Source: Spirochaetales bacterium
Lineage (GTDB): Bacteria > Spirochaetota > Spirochaetia > JAFGXN01
Assembly (NCBI GenBank): GCA_016936615.1
Contig: JAFGXN010000007.1
Location: 28,575 to 92,574, forward strand
Length of the DNA stretch: 64,000 bases
Direction: 5' to 3'
Both the position numbers and the translations under genes were made by a program. This document shows positions 11,372-53,004 of the stretch, piece by piece. Position 1 is the first letter of the stretch; every line of letters starts with the position of its first letter. The notes below the pieces were generated by a model. That model searched no databases, was not told the origin of the DNA, and saw nothing but the letters and a program-made list of their open reading frames with translations.

Positions 11372-12175
11372 CTATAACTTTATTGAAAAAGAGGTGTCGC
11401 TCCTATTAAAAATAATATTCTGATTTGCGAAGGTTCTTTCTATTAACGAGAGGCCTTCTTCTTTTTTAGGATTAAGAGTTTGAACTCGCAAATCTGAAGA
11501 AAAAAGAAGAACCTTATCAGAAATTTTCAAAGCATTGTTTATATCATGAGTGCTAACAACCACTGTCAAACCCAAATTATCGACTAACTGTCGAAGCAAG
11601 AGATCGATCGCGACCCTATTCTGAAAATCCAAAAATGCAGTGGGTTCATCAAGCAGGATAATCTTACTCTGCTGGGCTAATGCCCGCCCAATCATAACCT
11701 TCTGCTTCTGCCCATCACTTAATTGGAAAAAATATTTATCAGACAAATCCTCAATATCCAAAATAGAAATTATCCCATTAACAACATCTTGATCATCGAC
11801 AGAGAGCCTTCCAGTAAATCCAGTGTACAAGTACCTACCAAGAGAGATTACATCAAAGACACGCATCAATCCCAGATCAGGGAATCCTGTAAACACACAC
11901 GAGACTAGAGAAGAGAGATCCCTCGCACTCATATTTTTGATATTATTCTCGTAGCAGAAGACATCCCCACTAAGAGTAGGAATTAACCCTGCTATAGTCT
12001 TTAAAAAAGTTGATTTACCTGAACCATTCACCCCTATTACAGAATAAAGAGAGGCATCTTGAAGAGAGATATTTATATTGTGCGCAACCTCTGTGATTTT
12101 ACTTCTTGATTTATACCCGATTGATAGCTGTTCTGTACTTAACACATTTATAATTTTATCCATTTGTCCTTCCAT
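11372..12175 (-). CDS. ABC transporter ATP-binding protein, iron-siderophore/heme/cobalamin (FecE/HmuV/BtuD) type
   Basis: Walker A GVNGSGKST, signature LSDGQKQKV, Walker B ILLDEPTAFLD. Operon with a FecCD permease and a class-III solute-binding protein. Confidence 0.85.
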   Translation of the reverse strand: MEGQMDKIINVLSTEQLSIGYKSRSKITEVAHNINISLQDASLYSVIGVNGSGKSTFLKTIAGLIPTLSGDVFCYENNIKNMSARDLSSLVSCVFTGFPDLGLMRVFDVISLGRYLYTGFTGRLSVDDQDVVNGIISILDIEDLSDKYFFQLSDGQKQKVMIGRALAQQSKIILLDEPTAFLDFQNRVAIDLLLRQLVDNLGLTVVVSTHDINNALKISDKVLLFSSDLRVQTLNPKKEEGLSLIERTFANQNIIFNRSDTSFSIKL

Positions 12176-13181
12176 TTTTTAATATCAAAAACAACACAAA
12201 AGGTGCTGAAACCAACGTTAAAATGGGGTTAACCGGCAACACATATGAAAGCCCTGGCAACTGGGCTACCAAATCCGCTAACAAAGCCATTATACCACCA
12301 AGAACAACTACTCCTGGAACAAGAACCCGATGATCCTCAGTATGAAAAGCCATTCTTGCTACGTGCGGAACAAACAAGCCAACAAAGGCTATTGGACCGC
12401 AGAAGGAGGTAACAATCCCACTAAGAAACCCAGCTGGTATAATAATCGAAACCTTCGCTAACACGAGATTGACACCCGAACTTTGTGCATAATTATCGCC
12501 TAATTTCATTATATTCAGGTTTTTAGAAATAAATAAAGCAAAAAAAATAAAAAAGAGAACAAAAGCAACAAAAAGATTCATCATCCAGCCCTGATTAGGC
12601 GGATTAAAAGAACCCTCAGCCCACAAGAAGTATATCTTAATCTTCTCTGGAACTGAAAAATATGAAAAAATAGAGATTGCCGCATTTATAAAATATCCAA
12701 CTAGCACCCCAAATATCAACAATCCTGTATTACTCGTAACCCTCGCTGAAACAATCGAGACAATAACAACCATAAGAAAAGCACCAAGACATGAGAACAA
12801 TAGCACACCTGAATGGTACAAGAAAATCCCCCCCGAAAACGAGCCACCAATCCCTGAAAAGACCATTATTGCAAGAGCTGCGCCAAGCGATGCCCCTGAA
12901 TTTATCCCAAGCACAAATGGTCCAGCTAAAGGATTACGGAAATAGACCTGAAGCAATAATCCAGCGACACTGAGACCTGCTCCCGCGAATAACGCCATAA
13001 TTGCACGCCCAATCCTAACCTTAAAGATAAATGCTGCCGGAGATCCATTGTTAGAGAAAAAATCAAAGATTCCTCGTGGAGACAACCAGACAGAACCCAA
13101 AAAAATCCTTAAAATGAAAAGAGAGAAACAAAATGAGACAAGAAATATAAAAAGAACTAAATTCCTTCTCGAATCCTTCAA
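12156..13181 (-). CDS. FecCD-family ABC permease (iron-siderophore/heme/B12 type)
   Basis: Polytopic membrane protein with FecCD/BtuC-like conserved segments (GAGLSVAGLLLQ, GINSGASLGAALAIM). Confidence 0.85.
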   Translation of the reverse strand: MKDSRRNLVLFIFLVSFCFSLFILRIFLGSVWLSPRGIFDFFSNNGSPAAFIFKVRIGRAIMALFAGAGLSVAGLLLQVYFRNPLAGPFVLGINSGASLGAALAIMVFSGIGGSFSGGIFLYHSGVLLFSCLGAFLMVVIVSIVSARVTSNTGLLIFGVLVGYFINAAISIFSYFSVPEKIKIYFLWAEGSFNPPNQGWMMNLFVAFVLFFIFFALFISKNLNIMKLGDNYAQSSGVNLVLAKVSIIIPAGFLSGIVTSFCGPIAFVGLFVPHVARMAFHTEDHRVLVPGVVVLGGIMALLADLVAQLPGLSYVLPVNPILTLVSAPFVLFLILKNGRTNG

Positions 13182-14216
13182 TTACATCCTCCTAAAAAAC
13201 CTACAATCAGCATCATCCCGATTCTTAAATATAAGATAGAGATCCCTAAGCACCAGATCAGGACGAACAACACCTAATTCAAAAAAATCCAAACCTTCGC
13301 CCTTAACATTTTTATCATTATTAAAGACCAATCCATTCTCGAAAGCCTTAAAAAAACTTCGATATGGAAAATCCAGCGAGCTCAAACCCTGCCCCTTATG
13401 AAGACTACTGTTGATAAGCCAAAAATCACAATCACTTGCCTTTGCAACAATCACCTCAGGATCCATCGCCAATGAAGAACTAAGCGAGTTCCCAGGCTCT
13501 GGAGTAAACATAATACCATTTGCATCTCTAATAAACTGTGCAAAATAGTTTTTTTCGCCAGGAATATACCAGACCCCGAAGTAAGGAATATTAACAAGAA
13601 TTCGCGGAGATTGTAGAATTTCCTGCTTCGCAAGAGAGTGTATCTCCAAGTAAGAGTCCACGACAGAGTCAAAATAGTCGCAAGCTATATCAAACCGCCC
13701 AATCATAAGCCCGACAACCTTAATCCATTCAAGTCGCCCAAGAGGATGAGTCTCAAGCCAATCCATAAAGAAGAACAAATCTATCCCACTCAAGCTCAAG
13801 AGCTCAACATTCTCTGAAACAGCAAAACCCTGAGGCGCAATCAAACAATCTGGATTAACTATCAGTGTCTTTTCCAAATCCAAAATACCACTCGGCGCAA
13901 CCTCCACAACCTTAGCCTCCCGAACAAGCGCCTGAATCTTCTGCGAGGAGGTATAACGTACAGTATCTATTCCTGCTATCAATCTTTCAGACGCAAGCGC
14001 CTCAAACATTGCTGAATATACTGTCCCCATGACGACACATCGAGAATACCCTGAATGGTTCGCAGCTTCGTAGGAAAATGAAAACTCATTTCCGCCGAAT
14101 CTCAAGAGATAACCAGAACCACTATCAATAATATCAAAGTTTGTAGCATAATCAACAGCAGCAAATAGGCTAAGACTTGAAAATACCAGCAACAGACAAC
14201 AAATTTTCTTTTTCAT
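13182..14216 (-). CDS. Periplasmic solute-binding protein of the ABC importer (class III, siderophore/heme/B12 type)
   Basis: Signal peptide, size and immediate linkage to the FecCD permease and ATPase. Domain assignment is by context and weak similarity only. Confidence 0.6.
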   Translation of the reverse strand: MKKKICCLLLVFSSLSLFAAVDYATNFDIIDSGSGYLLRFGGNEFSFSYEAANHSGYSRCVVMGTVYSAMFEALASERLIAGIDTVRYTSSQKIQALVREAKVVEVAPSGILDLEKTLIVNPDCLIAPQGFAVSENVELLSLSGIDLFFFMDWLETHPLGRLEWIKVVGLMIGRFDIACDYFDSVVDSYLEIHSLAKQEILQSPRILVNIPYFGVWYIPGEKNYFAQFIRDANGIMFTPEPGNSLSSSLAMDPEVIVAKASDCDFWLINSSLHKGQGLSSLDFPYRSFFKAFENGLVFNNDKNVKGEGLDFFELGVVRPDLVLRDLYLIFKNRDDADCRFFRRM

Positions 14217-15001: not shown

Positions 15002-16064
15002 TGCTCAACCTCCACTCGTTTATCAATGAAAAATCATCACAATCCATTTGATACAAATCTCCCTTACTGAAATTAACAGCAAACAGGCTTCCTGAATCTT
15101 TGTCAAACAATATATCAGAGATAAAATCTCCCGAACCAACAACAGAGGGATAACTTGCAGAGGGAAAATCATCAAGAATAGATATTTCCCCACCAACACC
15201 AACCTCGTAAGAGATAACTCCATTCTCTGAAACTAGATAGACTCTATTTGAAGAATAATCTACCCCTTTGCCCGAACCAAAAGGAGATCCACCAAGCCTG
15301 ATATGCTCCACCACCTCGCCTTGAAGATAATCATAGACAACAAGATAACCATCATCCCCTCCATTCTTTCCAGTACAAACAAAATGTAGTGAAGAGAGAT
15401 CCTCAAACAGAAGGATGTTCTGGCAATTTACAATCTCAGAGTTTAGAATCCCATCTAATGTGGCTATTGGAAAAAAACTTTGTTGAAAGTCAGATAAATC
15501 GATAACAGCAACAAATGGTTGACCAAAAGAGATTCTCTGCCTATCAAAGTTTGTACACGCAACATAGACCTTCCCTGCGTGAACAAGTAGCCCTTCAGGA
15601 CCGGCACTGAAACTAGCATAAGGATTGTTTATTTTAATTTTTTTCTTTAAAGAAAAATCTAATAGATCAAAAATCAAGAGTTCTGAGGTGAGAAAGCATG
15701 TAACCAGTATCAAATTGTCACTCGAAGAGATCTCAATTGCCCATGGGTTTGAACCTCGACCAGTATCAATAGTATACAAAAGCGAAAAGTCACGACGATT
15801 GTAGATTGAGATAGAGTTTGATAGCGAATTAACAACAAAAATCTTATCAGAAGAGGTTGCTAAGGAGTTTGGGGATTTTCCTGCAAATGCAGCATACTCA
15901 AAGATCTTGTCAGCGACAGGATCGACAACACTGATTGAGCTTGAGAGAGAGTTTAACACAAGTAGCCCAGATTCTGTATCTGGGATAGTCGTAGATGGAA
16001 CTCCAGGAAATCTTATGCAGGAGAAAGAGAGGAGAACATAGATTGTGAAGATGAATTTTTTCAT
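14973..16064 (-). CDS. Beta-propeller repeat lipoprotein (YVTN/YncE-like)
   Basis: Signal plus lipobox (LSFSC), then repeated ~40-aa units (SSISVVDPVADKI, VVNSLSNSISIYNRRD, LVTCFLTSELLIFD). Confidence 0.55.
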   Translation of the reverse strand: MKKFIFTIYVLLSFSCIRFPGVPSTTIPDTESGLLVLNSLSSSISVVDPVADKIFEYAAFAGKSPNSLATSSDKIFVVNSLSNSISIYNRRDFSLLYTIDTGRGSNPWAIEISSSDNLILVTCFLTSELLIFDLLDFSLKKKIKINNPYASFSAGPEGLLVHAGKVYVACTNFDRQRISFGQPFVAVIDLSDFQQSFFPIATLDGILNSEIVNCQNILLFEDLSSLHFVCTGKNGGDDGYLVVYDYLQGEVVEHIRLGGSPFGSGKGVDYSSNRVYLVSENGVISYEVGVGGEISILDDFPSASYPSVVGSGDFISDILFDKDSGSLFAVNFSKGDLYQMDCDDFSLINEWRLSSGILSIFQY

Positions 16065-17965
16065 ATAGTAACCCTCAATCCAATCTTAAGATTAGGCCTT
16101 CGCATTGGAAGATCTTCAAAATCGAAGGGCTCTCCTATCACAAAGTTCTCGCCAGAGATCAGAAATTTTATATTCTGAGTTATGGTCAGGTTCATCATGA
16201 AAGAGAACAAGACCCAACCATCTCGGTAATCAGTATTTGAGATGTTCAAATATCGTTGACCTGTGTATGAACCGCTTATCAAGAATAGATGCCCTTCTTC
16301 GGTTTTGTATTTTAGAGAAATTGAGAAGATATTAAAGGGGCGTAGCGGTAGTTGATTTAAAAAACTTGAGGAATCTGCATCATTGTCGTAGCAGAAGAGT
16401 GTGGAAAAATTGAAATTCATGTTAAAGCTTGAGAGGTTTTTTGTAAAGACTAGGATATTTAATGAAAAATCGTAGCCAAAAGAGACTACACTCTCCAGGT
16501 TTGACGGTCTCCACAATCCTCCAGGACCTTGATTCCAGAGAATATAGTCTGAAATATCCTGATAAAAGAGATTTAACTTAACTGAACCAAGCTTTTTCAA
16601 CTTGATGGTAAGCTCTGAATCGATGAAAAACATCTCTTCTGGACGGAGAGCAAGATTCCCGACAGCAAAAGAGCTACTCGGCCAGAAGAGATCCTGAAAG
16701 GAGGGTTGCTTCATGGCAAAGCCAGAGCTTACCCTTAGGCTTGAAAAATTATCATAGCTTGAGACAATCAAGAATCCAGCCTCAAGGTTGCCACTCCCCC
16801 GCACAGATAAATGGCTAGAAAAAAAATCAAAGCTACTTGCGCCACCTGCATTTAGGAAGCCTTGAAAAAAATCTTTTTCACTTCCATTTTTTGAGACTCG
16901 AAACCCACCATTTCCATGCAGTCTGAACCTTCCAATTACGCCAGCACCCTCCTCTAAATTATCTGAAATAAACTTTGAAGAGGAGAGCCCCTCTGCCTGT
17001 ATCCCAAACTTCAGATGTCCTGCTGTCTTGTCAGACTTGAGAAGATAGGCAATATCAAGATTTGAGCCGTAATTAAAATTTCTAAAGCTTAGCACACCAG
17101 CAGAATTATCGGAATCATAATAATCTAGACTTGAAAGATTAAGCCCGAAGCCAATCAGGATTTTTCCTTTTTCAACCTTTTTCTCCCATCCAATAGTAGG
17201 AGAGAAGAATAACTTATTCAAATTAGCAGTATCATCGGGAAATTGAGTCGATCCTTGCCTGCCTTTCTGTTGAAATGCAAATGGAAGCAGAAAATCAAGA
17301 GATGAGCTGTTATCGATAAGCTTTTTTCCTGAGAACGCAATAGAAAAATTCATAGCCGCAGAGTAGATATCGAAAAAATCTCGACTTAATCCTGGAAAAC
17401 GACCAGCATCGATTAGACCTTTGACTCCAAGAGAGTAGAACATATTATTCTTCAAGAAATCTGAATTAAAAAAATCAAGAATCATCAGCCCAGAGGTTCC
17501 AAAACCAATATTGACAAAGGTTCCAGGGATTGAAGATGCTCCATCCTTTGTAACGATATTTATTGCACCGCCAATAGCATCATCTCCGTAGATTGAGGAG
17601 GCATTCCCCTTGATAATCTCAATTCTCTCAACCATACTCAAGGGAATAAAGCTAAAGATCATCTCCAAATCAATCAACGGAGAGAGTTTTCGTCCATTTA
17701 CAAGAATTAATATGCGTGTAGAATCAACCCCCCTGAAAAAAAGCGTAACCTCATTACCGCTTCGATTTACATAGACACCAGCAACACTTATCAAGATATC
17801 TAGAATATCATTAGCAGGCGACTCCATAATCTCCTGGCTATCTATAATCACCAGATTAGAATTTCCGCCACTTCCATAAATATCCATCGAATCAGCAAAG
17901 AGGACTGAAAAAGAGGTAATAATGAGAAAAAAAGCTGCAAAAATAGCCTTTCTACTGTCTAGCAT
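16061..17965 (-). CDS. TonB-dependent outer-membrane receptor
   Basis: N-terminal plug motifs (ILISVAGVYVNRSGNEVTLFFRGVD...RIEIIKGNASSIYGDDAIGGAINIVTK) and an aromatic-rich C-terminus ending in a beta-barrel terminal strand. Confidence 0.75.
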   Translation of the reverse strand: MLDSRKAIFAAFFLIITSFSVLFADSMDIYGSGGNSNLVIIDSQEIMESPANDILDILISVAGVYVNRSGNEVTLFFRGVDSTRILILVNGRKLSPLIDLEMIFSFIPLSMVERIEIIKGNASSIYGDDAIGGAINIVTKDGASSIPGTFVNIGFGTSGLMILDFFNSDFLKNNMFYSLGVKGLIDAGRFPGLSRDFFDIYSAAMNFSIAFSGKKLIDNSSSLDFLLPFAFQQKGRQGSTQFPDDTANLNKLFFSPTIGWEKKVEKGKILIGFGLNLSSLDYYDSDNSAGVLSFRNFNYGSNLDIAYLLKSDKTAGHLKFGIQAEGLSSSKFISDNLEEGAGVIGRFRLHGNGGFRVSKNGSEKDFFQGFLNAGGASSFDFFSSHLSVRGSGNLEAGFLIVSSYDNFSSLRVSSGFAMKQPSFQDLFWPSSSFAVGNLALRPEEMFFIDSELTIKLKKLGSVKLNLFYQDISDYILWNQGPGGLWRPSNLESVVSFGYDFSLNILVFTKNLSSFNMNFNFSTLFCYDNDADSSSFLNQLPLRPFNIFSISLKYKTEEGHLFLISGSYTGQRYLNISNTDYRDGWVLFSFMMNLTITQNIKFLISGENFVIGEPFDFEDLPMRRPNLKIGLRVTI

Positions 17966-19575: not shown

Positions 19576-19864
19576 TTTTTTCTCCTTCTTACGCGAAAGG
19601 AAAAACCGCCTGCAGGTCGATTTAACCACGGCTCTAGCAAAGTATCCTGACTCACAGGCAATTCCGCAGACACCTTCCCGATTTCTCAGTGGCATAGATC
19701 TACATCTTCCTGAATACAGTTGCGCGACAGTGCAGGATTCTCACCTGCTTCCATTGAACTAGAGCTAACGCAATACTAACAATATATTGAAATCTATTCA
19801 ATACAGTATTGACAATTCAAACCACATCTATTTAAAGTATTACTAATAAAGTTTAGGAGTAAAA

Positions 19865-22598: not shown

Positions 22599-22724
22599 AT
22601 GCAAAAGAACCATAATGAATACAGAAAGTGAATCAAATATATCAAAATAGTCAAAAATCTACCACAAAATTTGCAAGTACCTCCAACTTTTACGATAATT
22701 AAGTTACCTAACAGGAGGCAACAA

Positions 22725-23690
22725 ATGAAAAAAACTTGCAAAAAAATTTTACTTGGGCTGTTGCTAGCAACAATTGTAGCAGCATGTGGAGAAATCGACT
22801 TAGAGAACAAACCATTCTACTCAACAGGGAAAACTATACTTCCTAGCTACGATGGAGACCTTGAAGCAATAGCTGCAAAACTTCAAAGCAGAAATACCGA
22901 ATGGAACTACGGAAATGCAATATATGAACTACATGCTCTTCTTGTAGATGATGCAGACTATGAGGGTAAAGGATACTTCAATATCTTCGACACACTACGA
23001 AGTGCAGATGAGCTCTACAAATCAGCATCATCTATTATTGGTAGCACAATCAGTAAAGCTGTGGCATCCCCAATCGACTTTGGCTTTGAAACTCAGACCT
23101 ACACAAAATATTATATCTATGAGAATAGTGATAACACCTATGTACGACAGGTCTTTCTAAAAGAGACTGAGACAAATGTGGATATCCTCTGCCTAACAAC
23201 TATCAACCGCGAAGGAACTACTTCCGGCAGCAAGAACAAATCTGTAACACAAGCAACCTATAACAAATCCTCAGGCGATGTAGAATTTGGAATGTTTATG
23301 GCAAACTATGTCGATACATCCTGGGAAGTTGTAAAGGCATATGCAGAAGGAAATGTCAACACATTTACTTTTACAACAAAAATATTAAGATCTGCTGCTG
23401 GATACAGCCATAATATAATTGGAAAAGGTGTCTCTAGCGAGACAGGATACTTCCTTCTAAAGCTGGCTAACAATTCAACAGATATAGCAGATGGAAAATT
23501 CTACAAGATAAACTCTAATGCTGATGTCGCAGCACTTCAGGCTCTAGATATTGCTGGTTTTGAAACCGCAGAATTAGCTGGCGATTCAACTGGCTATGCA
23601 GCAGGACTACCTTCAGCATACACAATGGAAACAGACATGCTTACACAACAACAGGTACAAGATCTAGTTCTAACTGTTACAATGGAGTAA
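22725..23690 (+). CDS. Hypothetical lipoprotein
   Basis: AGGAGG RBS, then MKKTCKKILLGLLLATIVAACGE (lipobox). No recognisable domain. Confidence 0.5.
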   Translation: MKKTCKKILLGLLLATIVAACGEIDLENKPFYSTGKTILPSYDGDLEAIAAKLQSRNTEWNYGNAIYELHALLVDDADYEGKGYFNIFDTLRSADELYKSASSIIGSTISKAVASPIDFGFETQTYTKYYIYENSDNTYVRQVFLKETETNVDILCLTTINREGTTSGSKNKSVTQATYNKSSGDVEFGMFMANYVDTSWEVVKAYAEGNVNTFTFTTKILRSAAGYSHNIIGKGVSSETGYFLLKLANNSTDIADGKFYKINSNADVAALQALDIAGFETAELAGDSTGYAAGLPSAYTMETDMLTQQQVQDLVLTVTME

Positions 23691-23709
23691 ACTAGCATAA
23701 GTAAAAAAA

Positions 23710-23737
23710 AACGGATTGAAGCTCAATCCGTTTTTTT
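23710..23737. terminator. Bidirectional intrinsic terminator between convergent genes
   Basis: AACGGATTG-aagct-CAATCCGTT 9-bp stem flanked by an A-run on one side and a T-run on the other. Confidence 0.55.
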
Positions 23738-23741
23738 ATTT

Positions 23742-25637
23742 TTAATTCTTAGATTTATAACAACCTAACAGTCTCAAATCTGCTGTCTTGTTAGCTAGAT
23801 CCTGCAAAAACCCATCTACAGTGGTGGTCTTACCTGCGATATCAATATCAGCGTAGAACATATACTGCCATGGACTACCAGCAATCGGCCGTGACTCAAG
23901 CTTTTTCATATTAAAATCATACTGCTTAAAGACATTAAGCGCCTCAAGCAAGGCTCCTGGCTGATCATCAACCGCAAAGACAAGCGAAGCCTTTGTTGTA
24001 TCTGCCTCAACCTTAGGGACACCCCTTTGAATAACAACAAAGCGAGTATAATTTCGTGGATTGTTTTCGATATTAATCTTAAGAACCTTCATATTCCACA
24101 ACACCGCAGAGTGCTCTCCGGCAATAGCGGCTAGACTAGGATCATTTTTCTGACTGATAAATTTGACAGATCCTGAAGTATCTGAATATGGAATAAGTTC
24201 AACATCACCTAAGGTTTCAAGAAATTTACTTGACTGAGATAGAGCCTGCGGATGAGAATAGACCTTTTTTATCTTATCAATAGAGCTATCCTGAGAGCCA
24301 ATCAAACTATGCTCGATTCTGATTGAGTTCTCAGCTGTAATATGTACATCTGGATATTGGATAATCAAATCGTAGTTAGAGTGAACAGAACCTGCTAAAG
24401 AGTTTTCAACAGGAAGAATTCCATACTCTGCTGTGCCACTAAGAACAGCATCAAAGACATCCTTAAACCCTTTACAAGGCATAGAGACATACTTTGCTTT
24501 ATCAAATGTCCGATACAAAGCAACTTCACTATATGCACCACTCTCACCTTGGAAAGCAACCTGAACCAAATCAGAAGTCCTCTCTGCTGAAACCTTTGGA
24601 ATCTCAGTGAAACTTGTCGAAAGACGAGCAACCTCTTTTCGAACAACAGGTGCAAGCACCTCAATATCTCGCATTAATTTCTCAAATTGCTCTGGATACA
24701 GGGATTGTGGTCCATCTGACATCGCATTCTCAGGTTCATGGTGAACCTCCACAACAACTCCGTGAGCCCCTCCAGAGACCGCAGCCAATGTCATAGGCAT
24801 TACACTATCGCGACGCCCTGTTCCGTGGCTAGGATCTACAAAGACAGGGAGATGAGTAAGTCTTTTTAAAACTGGAATCGCTGACAAATCAAGAGTATTC
24901 CGTGTCTCAGTCTCATAGGTTCTGATACCTCTCTCACAAAGAATAATCTTATCTGTTCCACTAGCGATCAAATATTCAGCAGCCATAAGCCATTCTTGAA
25001 TAGTTGCAGAGATTCCTCTCTTCAACAATACAGGCTTACCCAAGGAACCAACCGCCTTAAGCAACTCGAAATTCTGCATATTTCGTGCACCAATCTGCAC
25101 AATATCAACATATTTATCAAACAAAGCAACATCATTTGTAGAGACAATCTCAGTCATAACTGGCATACCGAAGGCATCACCAGCTTCGCGCAGATAGACT
25201 AGTCCCTCTTCGCCTAATCCTTGAAAAGAATAAGGACTAGTTCGTGGCTTAAATGCACCACCACGAAGAATAACAGCGCCTGACTTCTTCAGAAGCTCTG
25301 CAATTGTAAATATTTGCTCCCGAGACTCAATCGCACAAGGTCCAGCGACAGAGATAATTCTATCACCACCAATAGTAATCGGTCCGACATCAAAGACTGT
25401 GTCTTGAGCCTTAAACTCCCTCGAAGCGAATTTATAAGGCTTAGAAATTGGAAAAACCTTAGAGACACCAGGCCTCATCTCCACTTCCACCTTATCCAAA
25501 CTACCAAGCCCAACAGCTCCGAGAACTGTCTCCTCTTGCCCATGAATCTCTTTAATCTTATACCCTTTATCTTTTAAGAAGGTTATAAGTGAATTTTTTT
25601 CAACATCAGTTATGCTTTTTTTAAGTACTATTACCAT
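23742..25637 (-). CDS. Tri-domain fusion: ferredoxin-like regulatory domain + class I-beta DAHP synthase + prephenate dehydratase with ACT domain
   Basis: N-terminal AroG(I-beta)-type barrel (AGPCAIESREQ, GARNMQNF, FVDPSHGTG). C-terminal PDT (KVAFQGESGAYSE, GILPVENSLAG) and ACT with an ESRP motif (KKLESRPIAG). Confidence 0.85.
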   Translation of the reverse strand: MVIVLKKSITDVEKNSLITFLKDKGYKIKEIHGQEETVLGAVGLGSLDKVEVEMRPGVSKVFPISKPYKFASREFKAQDTVFDVGPITIGGDRIISVAGPCAIESREQIFTIAELLKKSGAVILRGGAFKPRTSPYSFQGLGEEGLVYLREAGDAFGMPVMTEIVSTNDVALFDKYVDIVQIGARNMQNFELLKAVGSLGKPVLLKRGISATIQEWLMAAEYLIASGTDKIILCERGIRTYETETRNTLDLSAIPVLKRLTHLPVFVDPSHGTGRRDSVMPMTLAAVSGGAHGVVVEVHHEPENAMSDGPQSLYPEQFEKLMRDIEVLAPVVRKEVARLSTSFTEIPKVSAERTSDLVQVAFQGESGAYSEVALYRTFDKAKYVSMPCKGFKDVFDAVLSGTAEYGILPVENSLAGSVHSNYDLIIQYPDVHITAENSIRIEHSLIGSQDSSIDKIKKVYSHPQALSQSSKFLETLGDVELIPYSDTSGSVKFISQKNDPSLAAIAGEHSAVLWNMKVLKINIENNPRNYTRFVVIQRGVPKVEADTTKASLVFAVDDQPGALLEALNVFKQYDFNMKKLESRPIAGSPWQYMFYADIDIAGKTTTVDGFLQDLANKTADLRLLGCYKSKN

Positions 25638-25703
25638 AATTTAAATTATCTTAGTAAATCCTTACTGTCAATATAGCCAGGACACTTTTTGCGACTATTC
25701 AAA

Positions 25704-26348
25704 CTAAAAAGAAATTCTGATATTTTTCTCCACTAGACAAGCCTTTCTAAGCTCTTTTTTCAACTCTTCACGATAATCCATTATGTCTGAAATATAATAA
25801 AGCGTAGATTTAGGTGCCCCACCCCGAGAGACACGCCCGCCACCAGCATTGTACCATGCAAGAGCAACAACCTCATCCTCAGTCTGATTCAAACAGTATC
25901 GCAAATGAGAAATTCCCAGCTTAGTATTAAGCTCAGGATCAAAGAAATCCTTAACATTCAACCACGGAAAAGAGAAATTATTCAACTGAAACAGACCCCT
26001 ATCAATTGAGATAGCGTTTTTATTAACCGCATCTGTGGTAAACCGACTCTCCTTCCAAGCAACAGCAAAGGCCAAATCGGCTGGAACATCATAGACAATA
26101 GAATTAGCAAGAATCTGAGCAGATATCAGCCGAGAACCAGTCCTCTTATCAAAAAAATCAAGAACAAACTCCCTTGTATCAGGATTCTTAAACAAAGTCT
26201 CAGCAAGGGAATTCCCCTCATCTGAAGACAAAATTACAACCTTATCTCTTTGAACATGTGATCGATCCTTCACAGATACACAAAAGGTTAGACTCAAACA
26301 AAGCAAACATACCAGGATGTTTACAGAAATCGAAATATTCTTTTTCAT
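25704..26348 (-). CDS. Lytic transglycosylase (SLT-domain) lipoprotein
   Basis: SLT motifs AVAWKESRF...GLFQLN...AWYNAGGG. N-terminal signal peptide. Confidence 0.7.
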   Translation of the reverse strand: MKKNISISVNILVCLLCLSLTFCVSVKDRSHVQRDKVVILSSDEGNSLAETLFKNPDTREFVLDFFDKRTGSRLISAQILANSIVYDVPADLAFAVAWKESRFTTDAVNKNAISIDRGLFQLNNFSFPWLNVKDFFDPELNTKLGISHLRYCLNQTEDEVVALAWYNAGGGRVSRGGAPKSTLYYISDIMDYREELKKELRKACLVEKNIRISF

Positions 26349-40687: not shown

Positions 40688-42412
40688 TCAAAAAATTCTA
40701 TTTTTCACTACTTTTCTTGCTAAAAGAAGAGACGCAATCTGCAAAGAATAGGCATCACAGCCATTCTCAAGATAATCGGCTAAATCCTTAGCATGCGAGA
40801 AAATTGTACCTTGTGAAAAACCCTTAGCTTCAAGCCGTAGGGGATCTAACTCGAGAAATTCCGCATAATCTTGCGTCGAATTGCTGCGATGGCGGAGGAT
40901 TGAATGACATCCTTCAGGGGATATTACAGAAAAAAAGGAAAAATCCAACATGTAGAGATTTTTTTCTGAAGCTAGAGCAATTGCGCCGCCGCTTCCACCC
41001 TGGCCGGTTACGAAGGTGAAGACTGGAACTCTTGCATTTCCAATCCTGCCTGTCAGCTCGGCGATTATGCCGGCACTGTTCTCCTGCTCGGCGCGCGCCC
41101 CCGGAAAGGCGCCTGGAGTGTCAACAAAGCAGACTAACGGGATATTACAGAACTCAGCCTCACTGAGAATCCGCAAAATTTTACGGTAGCCTCCTGCATT
41201 TGCCATAGAGAAATTATATTCGAGGTTCTCGTCCCAGTTTTTTCCTTTGTTAAAATAGACGACAAAGAAAGGTAGCTGGCCGATAAAGCCGACTCCGGTG
41301 AAGAGAGCCTTATCGTCGCAAGATACCCTGTCGCCGTGAAGCTCAAAGAGGCTTGAAAATACAGAATTTGCAATCTGCGATGAATGGATATGAGACTGGG
41401 AACGGATAAATTTCAACAGATCCAATGAAGTTTTATGCTGAGAAAAAAACTCATTCCGCCGCGGTAATCTATCGCCGAGGAAGTCAGCCTTCCGCCTGCG
41501 CAGATTGCTCAAGTTCTCCCGCCGCAGCTGATTTCTCGCCGGCAAGTGATACCGCTTAGAAAATGTATAGACATAAAGAAGATTCTTCAGCGCGGCAGGC
41601 AGATTCCTGCGATGTAGAACCATGTCCACCTTGCCGCAGGTCAAAGCCCCTTCTGCAGATTGAATAAATGGATCAATCTCCTCGCCGATAGTGTCCCGAA
41701 TGACAGAAGGACCAGCAAAGCCGACAAACGCGCCTTTTTCTGCAATAATAATATTCCCAAGACTCGCAACGCTTGCGGTAATCCCCCCCGAAGTCGGATT
41801 AGTCATCACTACGAAGAGAGGAATCCCCTTGCGCCGCATTAGAATGCTGTTAGCCGACGCCGTGCGCATAGCCTGAAGCGAAGCAATCCCATCCTGCATC
41901 CTCGCACCGCCGGAAGCAGTAAAGACAACAAGCGGCAGAGACTTGCGGATTGAACGCCTTGTAATTTTTTCCAGAACAAGACCTTCTAAATGACCAAATG
42001 ATCCGCCGATAAAATCAAAGTCCATAATCGCAAAGCAGAGCCTCATCCCCGCAAGCCTAGCCTCGCCGGCAAAAATCGCAGAACCAAGACCTGACTTTTT
42101 CCTTGCAGAATCTAAATCTTCTATATAGTTAGGAAAAATTGACTGAACCTTCTCATGAGAGAGCAGCGCCGAAATATTCAGAGGTCGCACCGAACCAGCA
42201 TCAAATGTCATCTGAGCCCGTGCAAGTGCCGGAACCCTGAAATGATAATCGCAATGAGGACAAATATAGGAATTTTCCTGCACAGCAACTAGCGCCTTGC
42301 AGGATTTGCATAAAATCTGCTGATCCATAGACAAAATGTACCACAAAGACGTGTTTTTAAAAATATCAAAGTTGTTTTTTTTGCTGAAAAGATTTAAACT
42401 ATCCCCAATCAA
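40688..42412 (-). CDS. Acetyl-CoA carboxylase carboxyltransferase, fused beta (AccD) + alpha (AccA) subunits
   Basis: N-terminal AccD Zn-ribbon (CKSCKALV...CPHCDYHF) and AccD core (MTNPTSGGITASVASLG). C-terminal AccA core (FVDTPGAFPGARAEQENSAGIIA...VTGQGGSGGAIALA). Confidence 0.8.
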   Translation of the reverse strand: MIGDSLNLFSKKNNFDIFKNTSLWYILSMDQQILCKSCKALVAVQENSYICPHCDYHFRVPALARAQMTFDAGSVRPLNISALLSHEKVQSIFPNYIEDLDSARKKSGLGSAIFAGEARLAGMRLCFAIMDFDFIGGSFGHLEGLVLEKITRRSIRKSLPLVVFTASGGARMQDGIASLQAMRTASANSILMRRKGIPLFVVMTNPTSGGITASVASLGNIIIAEKGAFVGFAGPSVIRDTIGEEIDPFIQSAEGALTCGKVDMVLHRRNLPAALKNLLYVYTFSKRYHLPARNQLRRENLSNLRRRKADFLGDRLPRRNEFFSQHKTSLDLLKFIRSQSHIHSSQIANSVFSSLFELHGDRVSCDDKALFTGVGFIGQLPFFVVYFNKGKNWDENLEYNFSMANAGGYRKILRILSEAEFCNIPLVCFVDTPGAFPGARAEQENSAGIIAELTGRIGNARVPVFTFVTGQGGSGGAIALASEKNLYMLDFSFFSVISPEGCHSILRHRSNSTQDYAEFLELDPLRLEAKGFSQGTIFSHAKDLADYLENGCDAYSLQIASLLLARKVVKNRIF

Positions 42413-43290
42413 TGAAAATTTTTGTATTTCCAGGACAAGGCGACTCTCTTGAGCTAGAGGATATCCTGACTTTCGCAGGAGAAGAGTTCTTCGAAGAGCT
42501 TTTTCCTAATGAAAAATTACGACAAGCCCTGACTAGCGGAGAAATTGCGCCAGATTATTTTCAGTTTTTCTCATTTATTCACCAGATTGCAGCTGTGAAG
42601 GCTTTAGCCGGGCGCGGAGTCGAGCCAGATGTGGTTGCAGGCTTCAGCTTCGGAGAGTTTGCCTCCTACTGCACAGCTGGGATTCTCAGCTTCGAAGAGT
42701 GCGTGCGATTAGTTCTGTCGCGCAACCAGATTGCCAATCAGCTTGGCTGCAAAGATGCGCAGATGATGGCAGTTGTCGGGCTTAGCATTGGAGAGATTGA
42801 AGCTTTTGTAGAAAAATTCACACTCGATATCGAGATTACAAATTATAACACCTCGAAGCAATTTGTTATTGCAGGAAAAAATGCAGAACTCGCACGCTTT
42901 CAGGAACTTTCCGGTGCGGCAGTGGCGATGCTCAATCTGCCAGTCGCCTACCACAGCAGAACAATGGCAGCGGCACAGGAGGCTTTTGCAGAGGAAATCC
43001 GACAGTGCAAATTCTGCCAGCCACAGAAGATGATCCTCAGCAGCGTCTCCGGCAGATTGATTGACGATGCAGACGAAGCTAAGGAGCTGCTGCTGGTTCA
43101 AATGACTTCGCCGCTGAGATGGAGCGAGGCTTGTGCAACAATCGGGATTCTGGCGCCGGAGAGGATTTTCTTCCCGGGAGATGGGCGCAAAGTGCGGAAT
43201 ATTTGCCGCAAGAACAGGGTCGCAGGAGAGCTGATAAAGTGCGGCAGATTGGCGGAGTGCGCCACGGCAAGCGAGGTAGCAGATGACTAG
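42412..43290 (+). CDS. FabD-like acyltransferase (malonyl-CoA:ACP transacylase family) with variant active-site motif
   Basis: FPGQG start, active-site nucleophile in GFSFGE (canonical GHSLGE), downstream LNLPVAYHSR. Divergent from accDA, with ATGA overlap into the next gene. Confidence 0.7.
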   Translation: MKIFVFPGQGDSLELEDILTFAGEEFFEELFPNEKLRQALTSGEIAPDYFQFFSFIHQIAAVKALAGRGVEPDVVAGFSFGEFASYCTAGILSFEECVRLVLSRNQIANQLGCKDAQMMAVVGLSIGEIEAFVEKFTLDIEITNYNTSKQFVIAGKNAELARFQELSGAAVAMLNLPVAYHSRTMAAAQEAFAEEIRQCKFCQPQKMILSSVSGRLIDDADEAKELLLVQMTSPLRWSEACATIGILAPERIFFPGDGRKVRNICRKNRVAGELIKCGRLAECATASEVADD

Positions 43291-43576
43291 ACGTGGAGAG
43301 GTAGAATTTGAGAGCGGCGATGCGATATTCAGGGAACACTTCCCCGGGAACCCGGTCGTGCCGGGATCGTTCTTGATTGATTTTTTTGTGGAAAAAATTA
43401 AAGAAGATTGCAGAAAATGCAGATTTTTTACTATAGAAAAATTCAAATTTATAAAATTTCTCCAACCTGCAATCTACGAATGGGAGATTGAAGGTCGCGA
43501 CGGCGGGAAATTCATTTGTTTAATCCGAAAAGATGGTATAATATTCTCGAAGGGTACAATTACGGTGGGAAAATGA
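43283..43576 (+). CDS. Short FabZ/FabA-like hotdog-fold dehydratase
   Basis: HFPGNPVVPGSFLIDFF matches the FabZ active-site region (HFPG.P..PG). Only 97 aa, so the N-terminal about 30 aa of a canonical FabZ are absent. Confidence 0.5.
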   Translation: MTRRGEVEFESGDAIFREHFPGNPVVPGSFLIDFFVEKIKEDCRKCRFFTIEKFKFIKFLQPAIYEWEIEGRDGGKFICLIRKDGIIFSKGTITVGK

Positions 43577-44292
43577 TGGAATTTACAGGAATGACAGTGC
43601 TTATAACTGGTGCAAGCTCGGAAATTGGAATGGAGATTGCGCGGACGCTGGGAGATTGCGGGCTGAAGGTCATTGCGACTTGCCGCGGAAAGAAGATTGA
43701 TGGGCTGAAGGCTGCACTTGGCGATGGAGTTATCGTAAGTGAGCTGGATTTTGCGATGCCTGAGACTTTCGAGAAATTTGAGAACTACCAGATTGATTAT
43801 CTGGTGGATATTGCACATTCTGAGTACGAGTCGCTGATTGGCTTCTCGCAGCAGGCTGAGGTGGAGAGTTACTTCGCTCAGAACCTGGTCAACAAGATTG
43901 GATTCCTTCGCATTGTCGAGAAATCTATGATCAAGGGAAAATTCGGCCGCCTGCTCTATATCTCGTCAACGGCAGCCAAACGGCAGAACCCGGGGCAAAG
44001 CTTCTACGCGGCTTCGAAGCTGGCGATGGAGCAGATCTACCTGGGTATCGGGCTGGAAGCTGGCCGCAAAGGGCTGAGTTCGTTAATCCTTCGCCCCGGA
44101 TACATTGAAGCTGGACGGGGCAGACGCTTCACCGATGCTCTTGGCGGGAAAGTTGAAAAGCAGAAGATAGTCGCGCCAGCCGAGTTGGCCGCCAGTGTCG
44201 CCTTCTTCTTAAGCAACGCCGCACGGAAGATCTCCGGAACAATTATCACGATGGATGCTGGTATGAGTGCGGGGAAGAATTTTTATGGATAA
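43573..44292 (+). CDS. Short-chain dehydrogenase/reductase, FabG-like 3-oxoacyl-ACP reductase
   Basis: Cofactor-binding VLITGASSEIGMEIA, catalytic S...YAASK triad region, PG motif (RPGYIEAG). Confidence 0.8.
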   Translation: MMEFTGMTVLITGASSEIGMEIARTLGDCGLKVIATCRGKKIDGLKAALGDGVIVSELDFAMPETFEKFENYQIDYLVDIAHSEYESLIGFSQQAEVESYFAQNLVNKIGFLRIVEKSMIKGKFGRLLYISSTAAKRQNPGQSFYAASKLAMEQIYLGIGLEAGRKGLSSLILRPGYIEAGRGRRFTDALGGKVEKQKIVAPAELAASVAFFLSNAARKISGTIITMDAGMSAGKNFYG

Positions 44293-50329: not shown

Positions 50330-50425
50330 ATATAAAATAGCTGTTGCAGCGACTCCGCGCGGCGGGGGTTTTGGATTTTCAGCATCGCAGATGCATTTTT
50401 CAGGAAATCAGATACAGGAGAAAAT

Positions 50426-50791
50426 ATGGACACCGAGGCAAAGATTATTGAAATGATTGCGGAGATTCTTGATTTGGATCAGGAGGAGATCTCTGGAGAA
50501 AGTTATATGGTCAGGGATTTGGAGGCAGAGTCGATTGATCTGCTGGAGCTCGCAGTTGAGCTTAATTCAGCGTTTAAGATGAAAATCGACGAGAATATGG
50601 CTTTTTTGAAGACCCTAAGGGTGCACATCAAAGAGGCTGCGGATAACGGAAGCGATGCCGCAGATGCAGTAGCTGAGAATTTTCCATACTTGAGCACGCA
50701 GAGAATTAAAGATATATTGCTAGAGCTTGCAAACGGCCCTGTGCTGAAGGTCAAGGACATCGCAAACTACATCCAGTACAAAGGAAATTAA
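50426..50791 (+). CDS. Acyl carrier protein (dedicated, with C-terminal extension)
   Basis: Phosphopantetheine attachment context DLEAESIDLLELAVELNSAF (compare [20 protein letters not shown]). 121 aa versus about 78 aa for housekeeping ACP. Confidence 0.7.
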   Translation: MDTEAKIIEMIAEILDLDQEEISGESYMVRDLEAESIDLLELAVELNSAFKMKIDENMAFLKTLRVHIKEAADNGSDAADAVAENFPYLSTQRIKDILLELANGPVLKVKDIANYIQYKGN

Positions 50792-51433
50792 ATGCTAGAT
50801 AAAATTATCCGCGAACGACGGACAATCAGAGAATATACTCAGGAAATTCCTCCCCTTGAATTGAGAAAAAAGGTCGCAGAGGCTGGGTTATACGCCCCCA
50901 CTGCGACAAATTCTCAGCCATTCTTGATTCGAGAACTGAGCAAAGACGAGGTAGCTTCGATACAAAACCTGATGGAGAAGCGCTACGAGGAATTACTTGC
51001 TGCAGCAGAGAGTTGCGAAGACAAGAAAGTCGCAAAAGTCATAAATTTCTATTGGAGATTCAGCAAGCCAGTTCTGGCAGCACCGATTGTGTGGCTTTTT
51101 CTTGGGGAAAAAACTCCAAGCTTCACGCAGAGGCTTCAAGATGCTGGCCTTATCTCCTACACCGAAGCTAAGGCTAGCTCAGCCATGAGGATCTCCCTCG
51201 GATGTGTAATCCAGAACATGCTGCTCAAGGCAAAGGAGCTGGGACTAGGCTCCGGCGTCTACAGTGCACCATTTATTTTTCTTGAAAAAGATGAATCCGC
51301 CCTACTCGAAGACCTCGGCATCGACAGCCAGAAGTACTTCCCAGCAGAGTTTCTGACCATTGGCTATCCGGCAGAGAATCCTGACCGGCCGCACAGTAAA
51401 ACACTCGATGAGGTTTTTAAATACAATGAATGA
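50792..51433 (+). CDS. Nitroreductase-family flavoprotein
   Basis: N-terminal RRTIREYT and ...APTATNSQPF motifs typical of the nitroreductase/NADH-oxidase fold. Translationally coupled to the ACP gene upstream and the KAS gene downstream. Confidence 0.65.
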   Translation: MLDKIIRERRTIREYTQEIPPLELRKKVAEAGLYAPTATNSQPFLIRELSKDEVASIQNLMEKRYEELLAAAESCEDKKVAKVINFYWRFSKPVLAAPIVWLFLGEKTPSFTQRLQDAGLISYTEAKASSAMRISLGCVIQNMLLKAKELGLGSGVYSAPFIFLEKDESALLEDLGIDSQKYFPAEFLTIGYPAENPDRPHSKTLDEVFKYNE

Positions 51434-52595: not shown

Positions 52596-53004
52596 GTTCA
52601 CCAGCGGGCGCGACTCGATTTTTTTAATAGCAAAAATACGGAAATTCACCCCAACAATGATGAAAGTTAGTTCAAAGCCTCTTTCCGGCAGGAGCTGGGA
52701 GGTCTGCGAGCTGATGGCACAGACCGGCTCATTCCACGCGCGCATCCTCACCAAGTTTGAGCGGCAATCTTTCTTCCTGCAAGTCAAAGAGCTACGGCTG
52801 CCTGCACGAATCCACGGCAGATGCACCGCGAAGGCTCGCCTGATTGAAAGCTCAGAGACAAGTTTCAAGTACGAGGTGAAAATCTCGCGTCACTGCTATG
52901 GAATTTTTTTCTTTAGTACATTAAAATATGAGAACTTCAACGAAGCAGAGCAGTTAAGCGACTTTTACAAAGGGCAGGTAAAAAAGATATGGAAAAAATT
53001 CTGA
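52588..53004 (+). CDS. Hypothetical protein (138 aa) embedded in the KAS-AOS operon
   Basis: In frame, GC-rich like its neighbours, and overlapping both flanking genes. No recognisable motif. Confidence 0.4.
   Translation: MDKFTSGRDSIFLIAKIRKFTPTMMKVSSKPLSGRSWEVCELMAQTGSFHARILTKFERQSFFLQVKELRLPARIHGRCTAKARLIESSETSFKYEVKISRHCYGIFFFSTLKYENFNEAEQLSDFYKGQVKKIWKKF

Follow-up and report, generated by a model that had tools for sequence, protein, structure and literature searches.

The condensation of PEP with erythrose-4-phosphate by DAHP synthase (DAHPS, also written DAH7PS) is the first step of the shikimate pathway, and the conversion of prephenate into phenylpyruvate, carried out by prephenate dehydratase (PDT), commits the flux to the Phe branch. 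Type Iβ DAHP synthases are a textbook case of allostery gained by added modules, such as ferredoxin-like (FL), or ACT-like, domains and chorismate mutase (CM). In the known DAH7PS-CM fusions, the CM domain is N-terminal in Bacillus, Listeria, and Geobacillus, and C-terminal in Prevotella nigrescens and Porphyromonas. These proteins join enzymes that are not consecutive in the pathway, and it is the partner domain that provides the allostery, the outcome being reciprocal regulation and not channelling (PMC8408635).

The locus described here lies in a 64-kb stretch of DNA (the window), the source of which is a metagenome-assembled genome. Positions 23742..25637 of its minus strand contain a single ATG-to-stop open reading frame of 631 amino acids, without any interruption. 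The preliminary description had delimited the same frame and had read in it an FL domain, DAHPS, PDT, and ACT, with no CM, giving two potential allosteric domains, one at the N-terminus (FL) and another at the C-terminus (ACT, with an ESRP motif). All of this is borne out by the Pfam and NCBIfam profiles and by the alignments considered below. An identical 631-aa product is encoded in the independent Logan assembly of run SRR13394436, and uninterrupted versions of 619-658 aa are encoded in 12 species-representative genomes.

Residues 1-66 (25440..25637, minus strand, as for all the segments that follow) constitute the N-terminal ferredoxin-like regulatory domain of type Iβ DAHP synthases (DAHP_snth_FXD, PF18152; 43.9 bits, cutoff 27). 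Residues 67-336 (24630..25439) include a connector and the (β/α)8 barrel (~70-336), with DAHP_synth_1 (PF00793) matching at 86-322 (276 bits, cutoff 25.5), TIGR01361 scoring 390 bits (cutoff 267.75), and PRK08673 extending over the whole of 1-336 (468.5 bits, cutoff 335). An inter-enzyme linker (residues 337-358, 24564..24629) leads to the PDT catalytic domain (residues 359-540, 24018..24563; PF00800 at 360-538, 190.5 bits, cutoff 25.2), and this to a hinge and the C-terminal ACT domain (551-631), the Phe-sensing module of PDTs (residues 541-631, 23745..24017). The Pfam ACT model gives a sub-threshold match at 552-597 (18.3 bits, cutoff 27), and the domain is assigned by alignment to the C. 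tepidum PDT structure 2QMX and by the PDT equivalog PRK11898, which takes in the ACT region (359-629) with 222.5 bits, barely above its cutoff of 219. Neither CM_1 nor CM_2 of Pfam matches the fusion protein, and PRK12595, of the DAHPS/CM type, matches only the barrel (residues 70-330, profile positions 95-355). The lack of an N-terminal CM keeps the P-protein model PRK10622, over residues 356-631, at 206.9 bits, far under its cutoff of 577.

Every catalytic or substrate-binding motif that was checked is intact in the window protein and invariant or near-invariant in the family, and, judging by sequence, both halves look catalytically competent. In the DAHPS half, the metal ligands C101, H271, E297, and D308 align with C102, H272, E298, and D309 of the T. 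maritima enzyme, and the PEP-phosphate motif K130-P-R-T-S134 aligns with its KPRTS. These residues, together with R185, K206, and R236, are kept in 62-63 of the 63 relatives aligned, position 133 being either T or S.

The FL domain, in which 12 of the 66 positions are invariant among these relatives, aligns residue for residue with that of T. maritima DAHPS (1RZM), but its pocket is not the same. The T. maritima-type H29-x-S31 pair (H29-I30-S31 in that enzyme) is absent from the window protein, which has K29-E30-I31, and across the fusion family position 29 is R or K and position 31 is I or V. The motif [RK]29-E30-I31 is specific to the fusion clade, whereas in stand-alone FL-DAHPS H occupies position 29 in 20 of 32 sequences and S position 31 in 17 of 32. 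In T. maritima, H29 and S31 reportedly set the selectivity for Tyr (Cross et al. 2011; Cross & Parker 2013). Since this pair is missing, Tyr cannot be assumed to be the FL ligand, and the FL domain of the fusion may bind no effector. The joint Phe/Tyr feedback proposed in the preliminary description is accordingly conjectural, although the ACT domain does have the motifs of a Phe site.

As for the PDT half, its TRF motif lies within N529-Y-T531-R-F533, with T531 and F533 invariant and R532 present in 62 of 63 relatives; E411-N412, S461, D486-T487, and N529 are likewise invariant. The ACT motifs G561-A-L563 and E581-S582-R583-P584 are both present, G561, L563, and the whole ESRP being invariant in the 63 relatives, and the region aligns with the ACT domain of 2QMX, a Phe-bound structure. 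It has to be considered that PDT-fold proteins can have other activities, as in arogenate dehydratase or the quorum-quenching acylase GqqA (7ALZ/7AM0), so that the PDT function of this half is a predicted one; GqqA is a weaker match (E = 1e-29) than 2QMX (E = 5e-49). GqqA 7AM0 also appears among the Foldseek structural matches.

The linker between both enzymes is the least conserved part of the protein, with a mean top-residue frequency of 0.29, an entropy of 3.0 bits, and a length of 20-60 aa among the 63 relatives. An AlphaFold2 monomer model (pLDDT 84.8) places its only segment with pLDDT below 50 at residues 342-354, inside the linker, and the tether is probably disordered. The same model gives the FL domain as βαββαβ (strands from E2-5 to E58-62) and the ACT domain as βαββαβ over E549-627. 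Foldseek comparisons gave TMt values of 0.82-0.95 to DAHPS structures, with 0.95 for 3PG8, the T. maritima barrel in truncated form, and of 0.88 to PDT. Both folds are thus confidently modelled, while the mutual orientation of the halves is not fixed by the model; its pTM of 0.60, a low value obtained for a monomer, neither supports nor excludes a fixed interface between them. No PDB chain covering both halves was found in the sequence and Foldseek comparisons, nor any solved structure of an FL-DAHPS-PDT-ACT fusion.

A bidirectional intrinsic terminator (23705..23737; 15-bp stem, 3-nt loop, T-runs on both strands) is located just past the stop codon (23742-23744) and is common to the convergent gene at 22671-23690. 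On the other side, a 66-nt spacer (25638..25703, minus strand) separates the fusion gene from an SLT-domain gene (25704-26348). Direct reading of this spacer reveals a TTGACA hexamer, but a consensus promoter scan called no site in it, and matches in the region were no commoner than in shuffled sequence; no Rfam element corresponding to a leader or attenuator RNA was found upstream of the gene. It is possible, from these sequence features, that the fusion gene has its own promoter.

The neighbours in the window encode TelA, a FliG_C-like protein, the SLT transglycosylase, a lipoprotein, and a permease. Across 12 other genomes, nothing recurs beside the fusion except a DUF4416 gene and that of the acetolactate-synthase small subunit. 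No other gene of the aromatic pathway, CM included, is found in the 64-kb window or adjoining the fusion in those genomes. A conserved aromatic-pathway neighbourhood is consequently rejected, and the surroundings of the gene give it no pathway context. The search for CM, made with phmmer and hmmsearch on all six-frame segments of at least 50 aa in the window, used four AroQ queries and one AroH (with PheA of E. coli and AroH of B. subtilis among them) and returned only noise (E > 0.1). CM must therefore come from a separate gene outside the window.

The best 120 database matches all agree with the window protein in length and in Pfam architecture, and cover 97-100% of the query. Clustered at 90% identity, the proteins with this full-length architecture form at least 120 distinct groups. 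The architecture is common among Spirochaetia and Treponema-type genomes, whose clade members are ~55-60% identical to the window protein, and occurs also in Desulfobacterota, Atribacterota, and Acidobacteriota. The preliminary description had presented the fusion as unusual, and had left room for its being widespread and already characterised. The joining of DAHPS to PDT without CM is real, but the term unusual was overstated for an architecture with at least 120 clusters in four phyla; it is indeed widespread, and no paper characterising it was found. Neither did the literature covered yield any description of a DAHPS-PDT fusion in the order FL-DAHPS-PDT-ACT, Light & Anderson 2013, said to be the main survey of DAHPS decorations, lying outside that coverage.

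The fusion is, in sum, real, conserved, and under-annotated. Databases name only one of its halves, NCBI and JGI calling it 3-deoxy-7-phosphoheptulonate synthase and the UniRef label of one orthologue being Prephenate dehydratase. Because of this, reconstructions from spirochaete genomes or metagenome-assembled genomes can miss pheA or aroA and falsely predict auxotrophy for Phe or for aromatic amino acids. The architecture is carried by cultured organisms, Thiospirochaeta (T. perfilievii), Salinispira (S. pacifica), Alkalispirochaeta, and Treponema, which makes a workable experimental system available.

Taking these data together, the fusion is likely to be a genuine bifunctional enzyme, with DAHPS and PDT activities on a flexible tether, derived from adjacent operon genes. 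Its N-terminal half would act as a metal-dependent type Iβ DAHP synthase with its own ferredoxin-like gate domain and its C-terminal half as a PDT with the usual ACT domain, both being held by an unconserved tether of 20-60 aa. If the characterised homologues are a guide, Phe would bind at the ACT dimer interface and inhibit PDT, and an aromatic effector would bind between FL domains and close the DAHPS active site. The minimum effect of this arrangement is the 1:1 co-expression of the pathway entry and the Phe exit.

With regard to its origin, the fusion probably arose when the stop codon separating two adjoining genes of an operon was lost. Separate adjacent FL-DAHPS and pheA genes, in either order, exist in other phyla and are possible precursor arrangements. 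Thus, in one locus (L036) an FL-DAHPS gene is followed, after 20 bp, by a PDT-ACT-CM gene, and in two others (L076 and L080) pheA precedes aroA_Iβ, an operon order that has also been listed in the literature (PMC1173090). These three loci had appeared as candidate fusions (L076, 1-628; L080, 1-627; L036, 1-596) and were rejected as such, since tblastn had joined pieces across separate adjacent genes.

A bifunctional protein need not be an integrated one. It could be a simple "Rosetta-stone" weld in which a stop codon was lost, co-expression being the sole benefit and the halves not communicating, a reading that is quite plausible, although we would place it somewhat short of an even chance. 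It would agree with a linker that is unconserved, variable in length, and modelled with very low pLDDT, with a pTM of only 0.60, with the fact that the two genes are often operon neighbours, and with the presence on each half of a regulatory domain of its own. Against it stand the persistence of the architecture throughout a deep clade, whose members are ~55-60% identical to the window protein, and across four phyla, and a change in the FL pocket motif that is peculiar to the fusion clade. Moreover, separate events have joined type Iβ DAHPS to PDT-ACT in the opposite order, as well as to PDH-ACT, which points to recurrent selection for physical coupling. Finally, one relative (P0007) keeps the DAHPS fold in spite of having lost its catalytic motifs (C101R, KPRTS to MPGSG, K206T, and H271D), its PDT remaining intact, which suggests that the DAHPS half has a further part to play in the assembly, be it structural or regulatory.

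These last observations bring in the question of communication between the two enzymes. The fusion would bring a DAHPS tetramer and a PDT-ACT dimer into one complex, in which, by analogy with the DAH7PS-CM fusions, Phe bound at the ACT domain might modulate DAHPS and vice versa; this cross-talk is plausible but speculative, and we would hold it less likely than not. A more elaborate version, which is rather unlikely, would make of the protein a two-sensor bienzyme. In it, PDT-ACT would serve as a Phe sensor gating DAHPS through the shared assembly, the FL domain would have been re-tuned (H-x-S to [RK]-E-I) to a second effector (e.g., Tyr, Trp, or prephenate), and dead DAHPS variants such as P0007 would be kept because PDT regulation requires the barrel as a scaffold. 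Should this be true, the pathway entry would integrate two end-product signals in one polypeptide.

Much less probable than any of the foregoing is that one half is a pseudo-enzyme, PDT-ACT acting as a sensor of Phe or prephenate, in the manner of the Bacillus-type N-terminal CM, or DAHPS as an oligomerisation scaffold. In favour of this reading are P0007, devoid of DAHPS catalytic motifs, P0173 and P0178, whose DAHP_synth_1 scores reach no more than 67.6 and 34.7 bits, and the case of Shewanella, where Jensen's group described the AroA_Iβ part of AroQ·PheA·AroA_Iβ as a pseudogene (PMC1173090). The window protein, however, has all the checked motifs of both enzymes intact, these motifs vary little or nothing across the family, and both NCBIfam models exceed their curated cutoffs. 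Lastly, a frameshift or misassembly fusing two neighbouring genes, which the metagenomic source of the window and the separate adjacent DAHPS and pheA genes of other taxa might bring to mind, is rejected with practical certainty, as the second assembly carries the identical ORF and the same uninterrupted architecture and junction design recur across no fewer than 120 distinct clusters, as well as in 12 species-representative genomes.

For type Iβ DAHPS, the bifunctional protein proposed here represents a new combination, that of an FL domain with a complete PDT-ACT enzyme, and its family could reveal whether fusions of non-consecutive enzymes recur for regulation and not for channelling. The two enzymes and the two sensor folds being already familiar, the advance would be incremental, not conceptual.

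Compared with individual enzymes, residues 1-331 of the fusion align end to end with T. maritima DAH7PS (type Iβ, with N-terminal FL; 1RZM, 3PG9), with E = 2e-105 and ~50% identity to 1RZM, and share with it the FL domain, connector, barrel, and catalytic residues; the T. maritima enzyme, however, stops after the barrel, whereas the fusion runs on into PDT-ACT. Residues 360-628 align in turn with the C. tepidum PDT (2QMX), sharing its motifs (TRF, GAL-type, and ESRP) and its two-lobe PDT plus ACT fold, but the latter enzyme is a free-standing protein of ~280 aa, while here PDT is the C-terminal half of 631 aa. The PDT-ACT module is also that of the E. coli P-protein (PheA, CM-PDT-ACT), the position of CM being taken by DAHPS in the fusion.

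Among fused proteins, the same two families are found in reverse order as PDT-ACT-DAHPS (P0129, Calditrichaceae/Caldithrix) and as CM-PDT-ACT-DAHPS (P0131 and P0226), and the Shewanella AroQ·PheA·AroA_Iβ is of this kind (PMC1173090). Apart from the opposite order, these proteins lack FL, have ACT directly N-terminal to the barrel, and in some cases show degenerate DAHPS domains; in the tree, their DAHPS halves are placed on other branches, pointing to independent fusion events. P0151 (714 aa), an FL-DAHPS-PDH-ACT protein, has the same N-terminal FL-DAHPS and likewise ends in an enzyme of a terminal branch followed by ACT, but its partner is the Tyr-branch PDH_N/PDH_C instead of PDT, and its DAHPS half falls outside the PDT-fusion group. 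FL-DAHPS-PDT-ACT belongs, therefore, to a wider set of fusions of type Iβ DAHPS with terminal-branch enzymes. Its closest functional analogy is with the DAH7PS-CM fusions, which also link type Iβ DAHPS to a later, non-consecutive enzyme of the pathway, with the difference that the partner is here PDT-ACT and not an AroQ CM, and that the FL domain is retained, leaving two candidate sensor modules in the same protein.

The fusion gene occupies 23742..25637 on the minus strand as a single ATG-started ORF encoding 631 aa (ORF listing), at exactly the coordinates given in the preliminary description, and its start codon is taken to be right because the N-terminus of the product, MVIVLKK, fits the family consensus MVIVL. 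In Pfam, the protein matches DAHP_snth_FXD, the ferredoxin-like regulatory domain (FL; residues 1-66, 43.9 bits), DAHP_synth_1 (residues 86-322, 276 bits), PDT, the prephenate dehydratase (residues 360-538, 190 bits), and ACT (residues 552-597), this last one sub-threshold at 18.3 bits (cutoff 27), with no match to a chorismate mutase (CM) model. NCBIfam assigns residues 1-336 to the subfamily model PRK08673 (468 bits, cutoff 335) and residues 359-629, the ACT region within, to the prephenate dehydratase equivalog PRK11898 (222.5 bits, cutoff 219). The combination of FL, DAHP synthase (DAHPS), PDT and ACT without CM, first read from the DNA alone, is thus borne out, and the ESRP motif ascribed to ACT is present at residues 581-584. 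Judged by its sequence, the protein has the tested defining features of type Iβ FL-DAHPS and of PDT-ACT, and lacks those of the CM-containing bifunctional families.

A bidirectional terminator with a 15-bp stem (23705-23737) begins four bases past the end of the gene, and a 66-nt spacer separates the gene from the SLT-domain gene upstream. In Treponema-type genomes, the next gene downstream overlaps the stop codon of the fusion (loci L002, 11920-12447, and L005, 9032-9523) and encodes a DUF4416 protein or an acetolactate-synthase small subunit (ACT-containing IlvN/IlvH); neither of these genes adjoins the fusion gene of the window.

Elsewhere in the window, a cobalamin riboswitch (19619-19778, minus strand; Rfam RF00174, 69.7 bits) heads a minus-strand cluster, probably a B12-uptake operon, with a TonB-dependent receptor (16061-17965), a periplasmic binding protein (13182-14216) and, downstream, ORFs at 11372-13181 regarded as ABC transporter parts by position alone. 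The stretch 50400-54100 (plus strand), with a GC content of 0.46-0.51 vs about 0.37 elsewhere, encodes an acyl-carrier protein, a β-ketoacyl synthase, a 138-aa unknown protein and a class I/II aminotransferase (α-oxoamine-synthase type), and possibly represents an amino-lipid or sphingolipid-like biosynthesis cluster gained by horizontal transfer. In a second, mildly GC-rich stretch (40688-44292, GC 0.43-0.47), one 574-aa protein unites both acetyl-CoA carboxylase carboxyltransferase subunits (Carboxyl_trans + ACCA), its gene adjoining those of an acyltransferase (FabD-like) and a short-chain dehydrogenase.

That the fusion is an assembly artefact is ruled out by a second assembly, by at least 120 clusters of the same architecture and by 12 genomes with uninterrupted versions. 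The identical 631-aa product is encoded in the independent Logan assembly of run SRR13394436, and corresponds to the NCBI entry P0001, 'MAG: 3-deoxy-7-phosphoheptulonate synthase [Spirochaetales bacterium]'. The homologue and domain-architecture comparison proposed in the preliminary description gave a uniform result: the 120 best matches listed (clusters at 90% identity) are all 623-668 aa long, align over 97-100% of the query length and show the same set of Pfam domains. The 12 species-representative genomes encode fusions of 619-658 aa, which share one junction design with those of the database clusters: a variable spacer lies between the final helix of DAHPS (…PVVGKEL) and strand β1 of PDT (VAFQGE.GA[YF]SE).

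The N-terminal half matches the FL-DAHPS of T. maritima (1RZM) over its whole length (E = 2e-105), and the C-terminal half matches the Phe-bound PDT of C. tepidum (2QMX; E = 5e-49). All the motifs checked are present, and are invariant or nearly so in the 63-sequence family alignment: the DAHPS metal ligands C101, H271, E297 and D308, KPRTS (130-134), R185, K206 and R236; the PDT catalytic motif TRF (531-533); and the ACT motifs G-A-L (561-563) and ESRP. In the same alignment, mean top-residue frequency is 0.70 for FL, 0.82 for the DAHPS barrel, 0.69 for PDT and 0.64 for ACT, and 0.29 for the linker, whose entropy is 3.0 bits and whose length ranges from 20 to 60 aa. The AlphaFold2 model (mean pLDDT 84.8, pTM 0.60) has residues 342-354, within this linker, as its sole segment with pLDDT <50, and gives βαββαβ topology to both FL and ACT. 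Foldseek against the PDB matches the N-half to DAHPS structures (TMt 0.82-0.95) and the C-half to PDT structures (TMt about 0.88), and no PDB chain covers more than ~46% of the protein, in agreement with the PDB sequence search. The picture obtained is that of two intact predicted enzymes, with one sensor fold apiece, joined by a putatively flexible tether.

Among database clusters, the carriers of the fusion include Spirochaetales and Spirochaetia MAGs, Alkalispirochaeta sphaeroplastigenens, Salinispira pacifica and Thiospirochaeta perfilievii, to which the species-representative genome scan adds Treponema species, T. berlinense among them. Genuine fusions are also among the matches listed from those genomes for Desulfobacterales (L007, L008, L011), for the atribacterium Ca. 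Profundicultor (L012) and for a Terriglobia genome (L013). Since FL-DAHPS is stand-alone in Brachyspira (L047) and aroQ·pheA has been reported in Leptospira (PMC1173090), the fusion is not universal in Spirochaetota. An exhaustive search of 1.84 billion representatives at 50% identity found only ~8-12 colinear fusions among the best 150 (P0121-P0126, fragments, P0173 and P0178), and therefore the family is abundant but compact.

Neighbour joining on the DAHPS half (60 bootstraps) recovers the spirochaete-type fusions as monophyletic (59/60), with the Desulfobacterota and Atribacterota fusions as sister group and an unstable placement of the Terriglobia branch. Monophyly of all fusions was obtained in 9/60 replicates of the first tree, and all grouped together after P0125 was added. 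The simplest reading, a tentative one, would be one fusion origin followed by transfer between phyla. A plausible pre-fusion arrangement is found in a Bacillota MAG (L036, 5525-7955), where a separate FL-DAHPS gene is followed 20 bp on by a PDT-ACT-CM gene, its PheA having CM at the C-terminus, an uncommon order; in L076 and L080 the gene order is pheA then aroA_Iβ, and the operon list of Jensen's group agrees with such arrangements (PMC1173090). One contig labelled 'Ruminococcus intestinalis' (L002, 10001-11908) encodes a fusion that clusters tightly with those of Spirochaetaceae L003 and L004; horizontal transfer is the alternative, and the contig is probably mis-binned.

One relative, P0007 (58% identity), keeps the DAHPS fold and an intact PDT-ACT, with its DAHPS catalytic motifs replaced (GPCA by GPRA, KPRTS by MPGSG, LKRG by LTRG and DPSH by DPSD; C101R, K206T and H271D in the numbering of the window protein). 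Its DAHPS domain has the look of a pseudo-enzyme that was kept beside a working PDT. In P0173 and P0178, Pfam scores for the DAHPS model are very weak (67.6 and 34.7 bits). The FL pocket also differs: whereas T. maritima has H29-x-S31, as do most stand-alone FL-DAHPS (H in 20/32, S in 17/32), the fusions have [RK]29-E30-I31 (codons 29-31, at 25545-25553 in the window gene), with R/K at position 29 and I/V at position 31 in all 63 aligned sequences. Cross et al. in 2011, and Cross & Parker in 2013, are said to have found that His29 and Ser31 determine Tyr selectivity in T. maritima. The change suggests that FL effector specificity was altered or lost in the fusion clade, and, together with the P0007-type dead site, would suggest a coupling that is more than co-expression.

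To the architecture, intact active-site motifs, flexible linker and phylogenetic distribution documented here, a mechanism may be added from characterised homologues. Thus, the N-half would produce DAHP and the C-half would turn prephenate into phenylpyruvate; Phe at the ACT dimer interface would inhibit PDT, and an aromatic ligand spanning two FL domains would shut the DAHPS active site. Because DAHPS tetramer and PDT-ACT dimer share one polypeptide, a ligand-driven rearrangement of the ACT dimer might, speculatively, reach DAHPS too. CM was found neither in the protein, nor in the 64-kb window, nor in the flanks of 12 other fusion loci, and so must be encoded elsewhere. Eight reactions lie between DAHPS and PDT, which makes substrate channelling implausible as the benefit.

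A literature search, which did not include the main survey (Light & Anderson 2013), found no paper describing the FL-DAHPS-PDT-ACT order. Bai & Parker 2021 name no enzyme other than CM as fused to Iβ DAH7PS, and the sole case mentioned by Jensen's group is AroQ·PheA·AroA_Iβ of Shewanella, as a 'pseudogene' (PMC1173090). Public databases hold fusion proteins, but under names that refer to one half only. The fusion family is real, conserved, under-annotated and uncharacterised, and made entirely from well-understood parts.

According to Pfam scans of other top matches, DAHPS Iβ has been joined to terminal-branch enzymes several times. PDT-ACT precedes DAHPS in P0129 (Calditrichaceae/Caldithrix) and, behind CM, in P0131 and P0226 (the latter a Myxococcales sequence that scores weakly for DAHPS), in contrast to the order of the window protein; P0151 (FL-DAHPS-PDH-ACT, 714 aa), a Tyr-branch counterpart, begins and ends like the window protein, with prephenate dehydrogenase (PDH) in place of PDT. 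The DAHPS halves of these four fall elsewhere in the tree than the colinear PDT fusions do, and they are therefore independent fusion events. In the DAH7PS-CM of Prevotella, the fusion of two non-consecutive enzymes serves reciprocal allostery and not channelling (PMC8408635), and cross-talk from ACT to DAHPS in the window protein would, speculatively, parallel that system.
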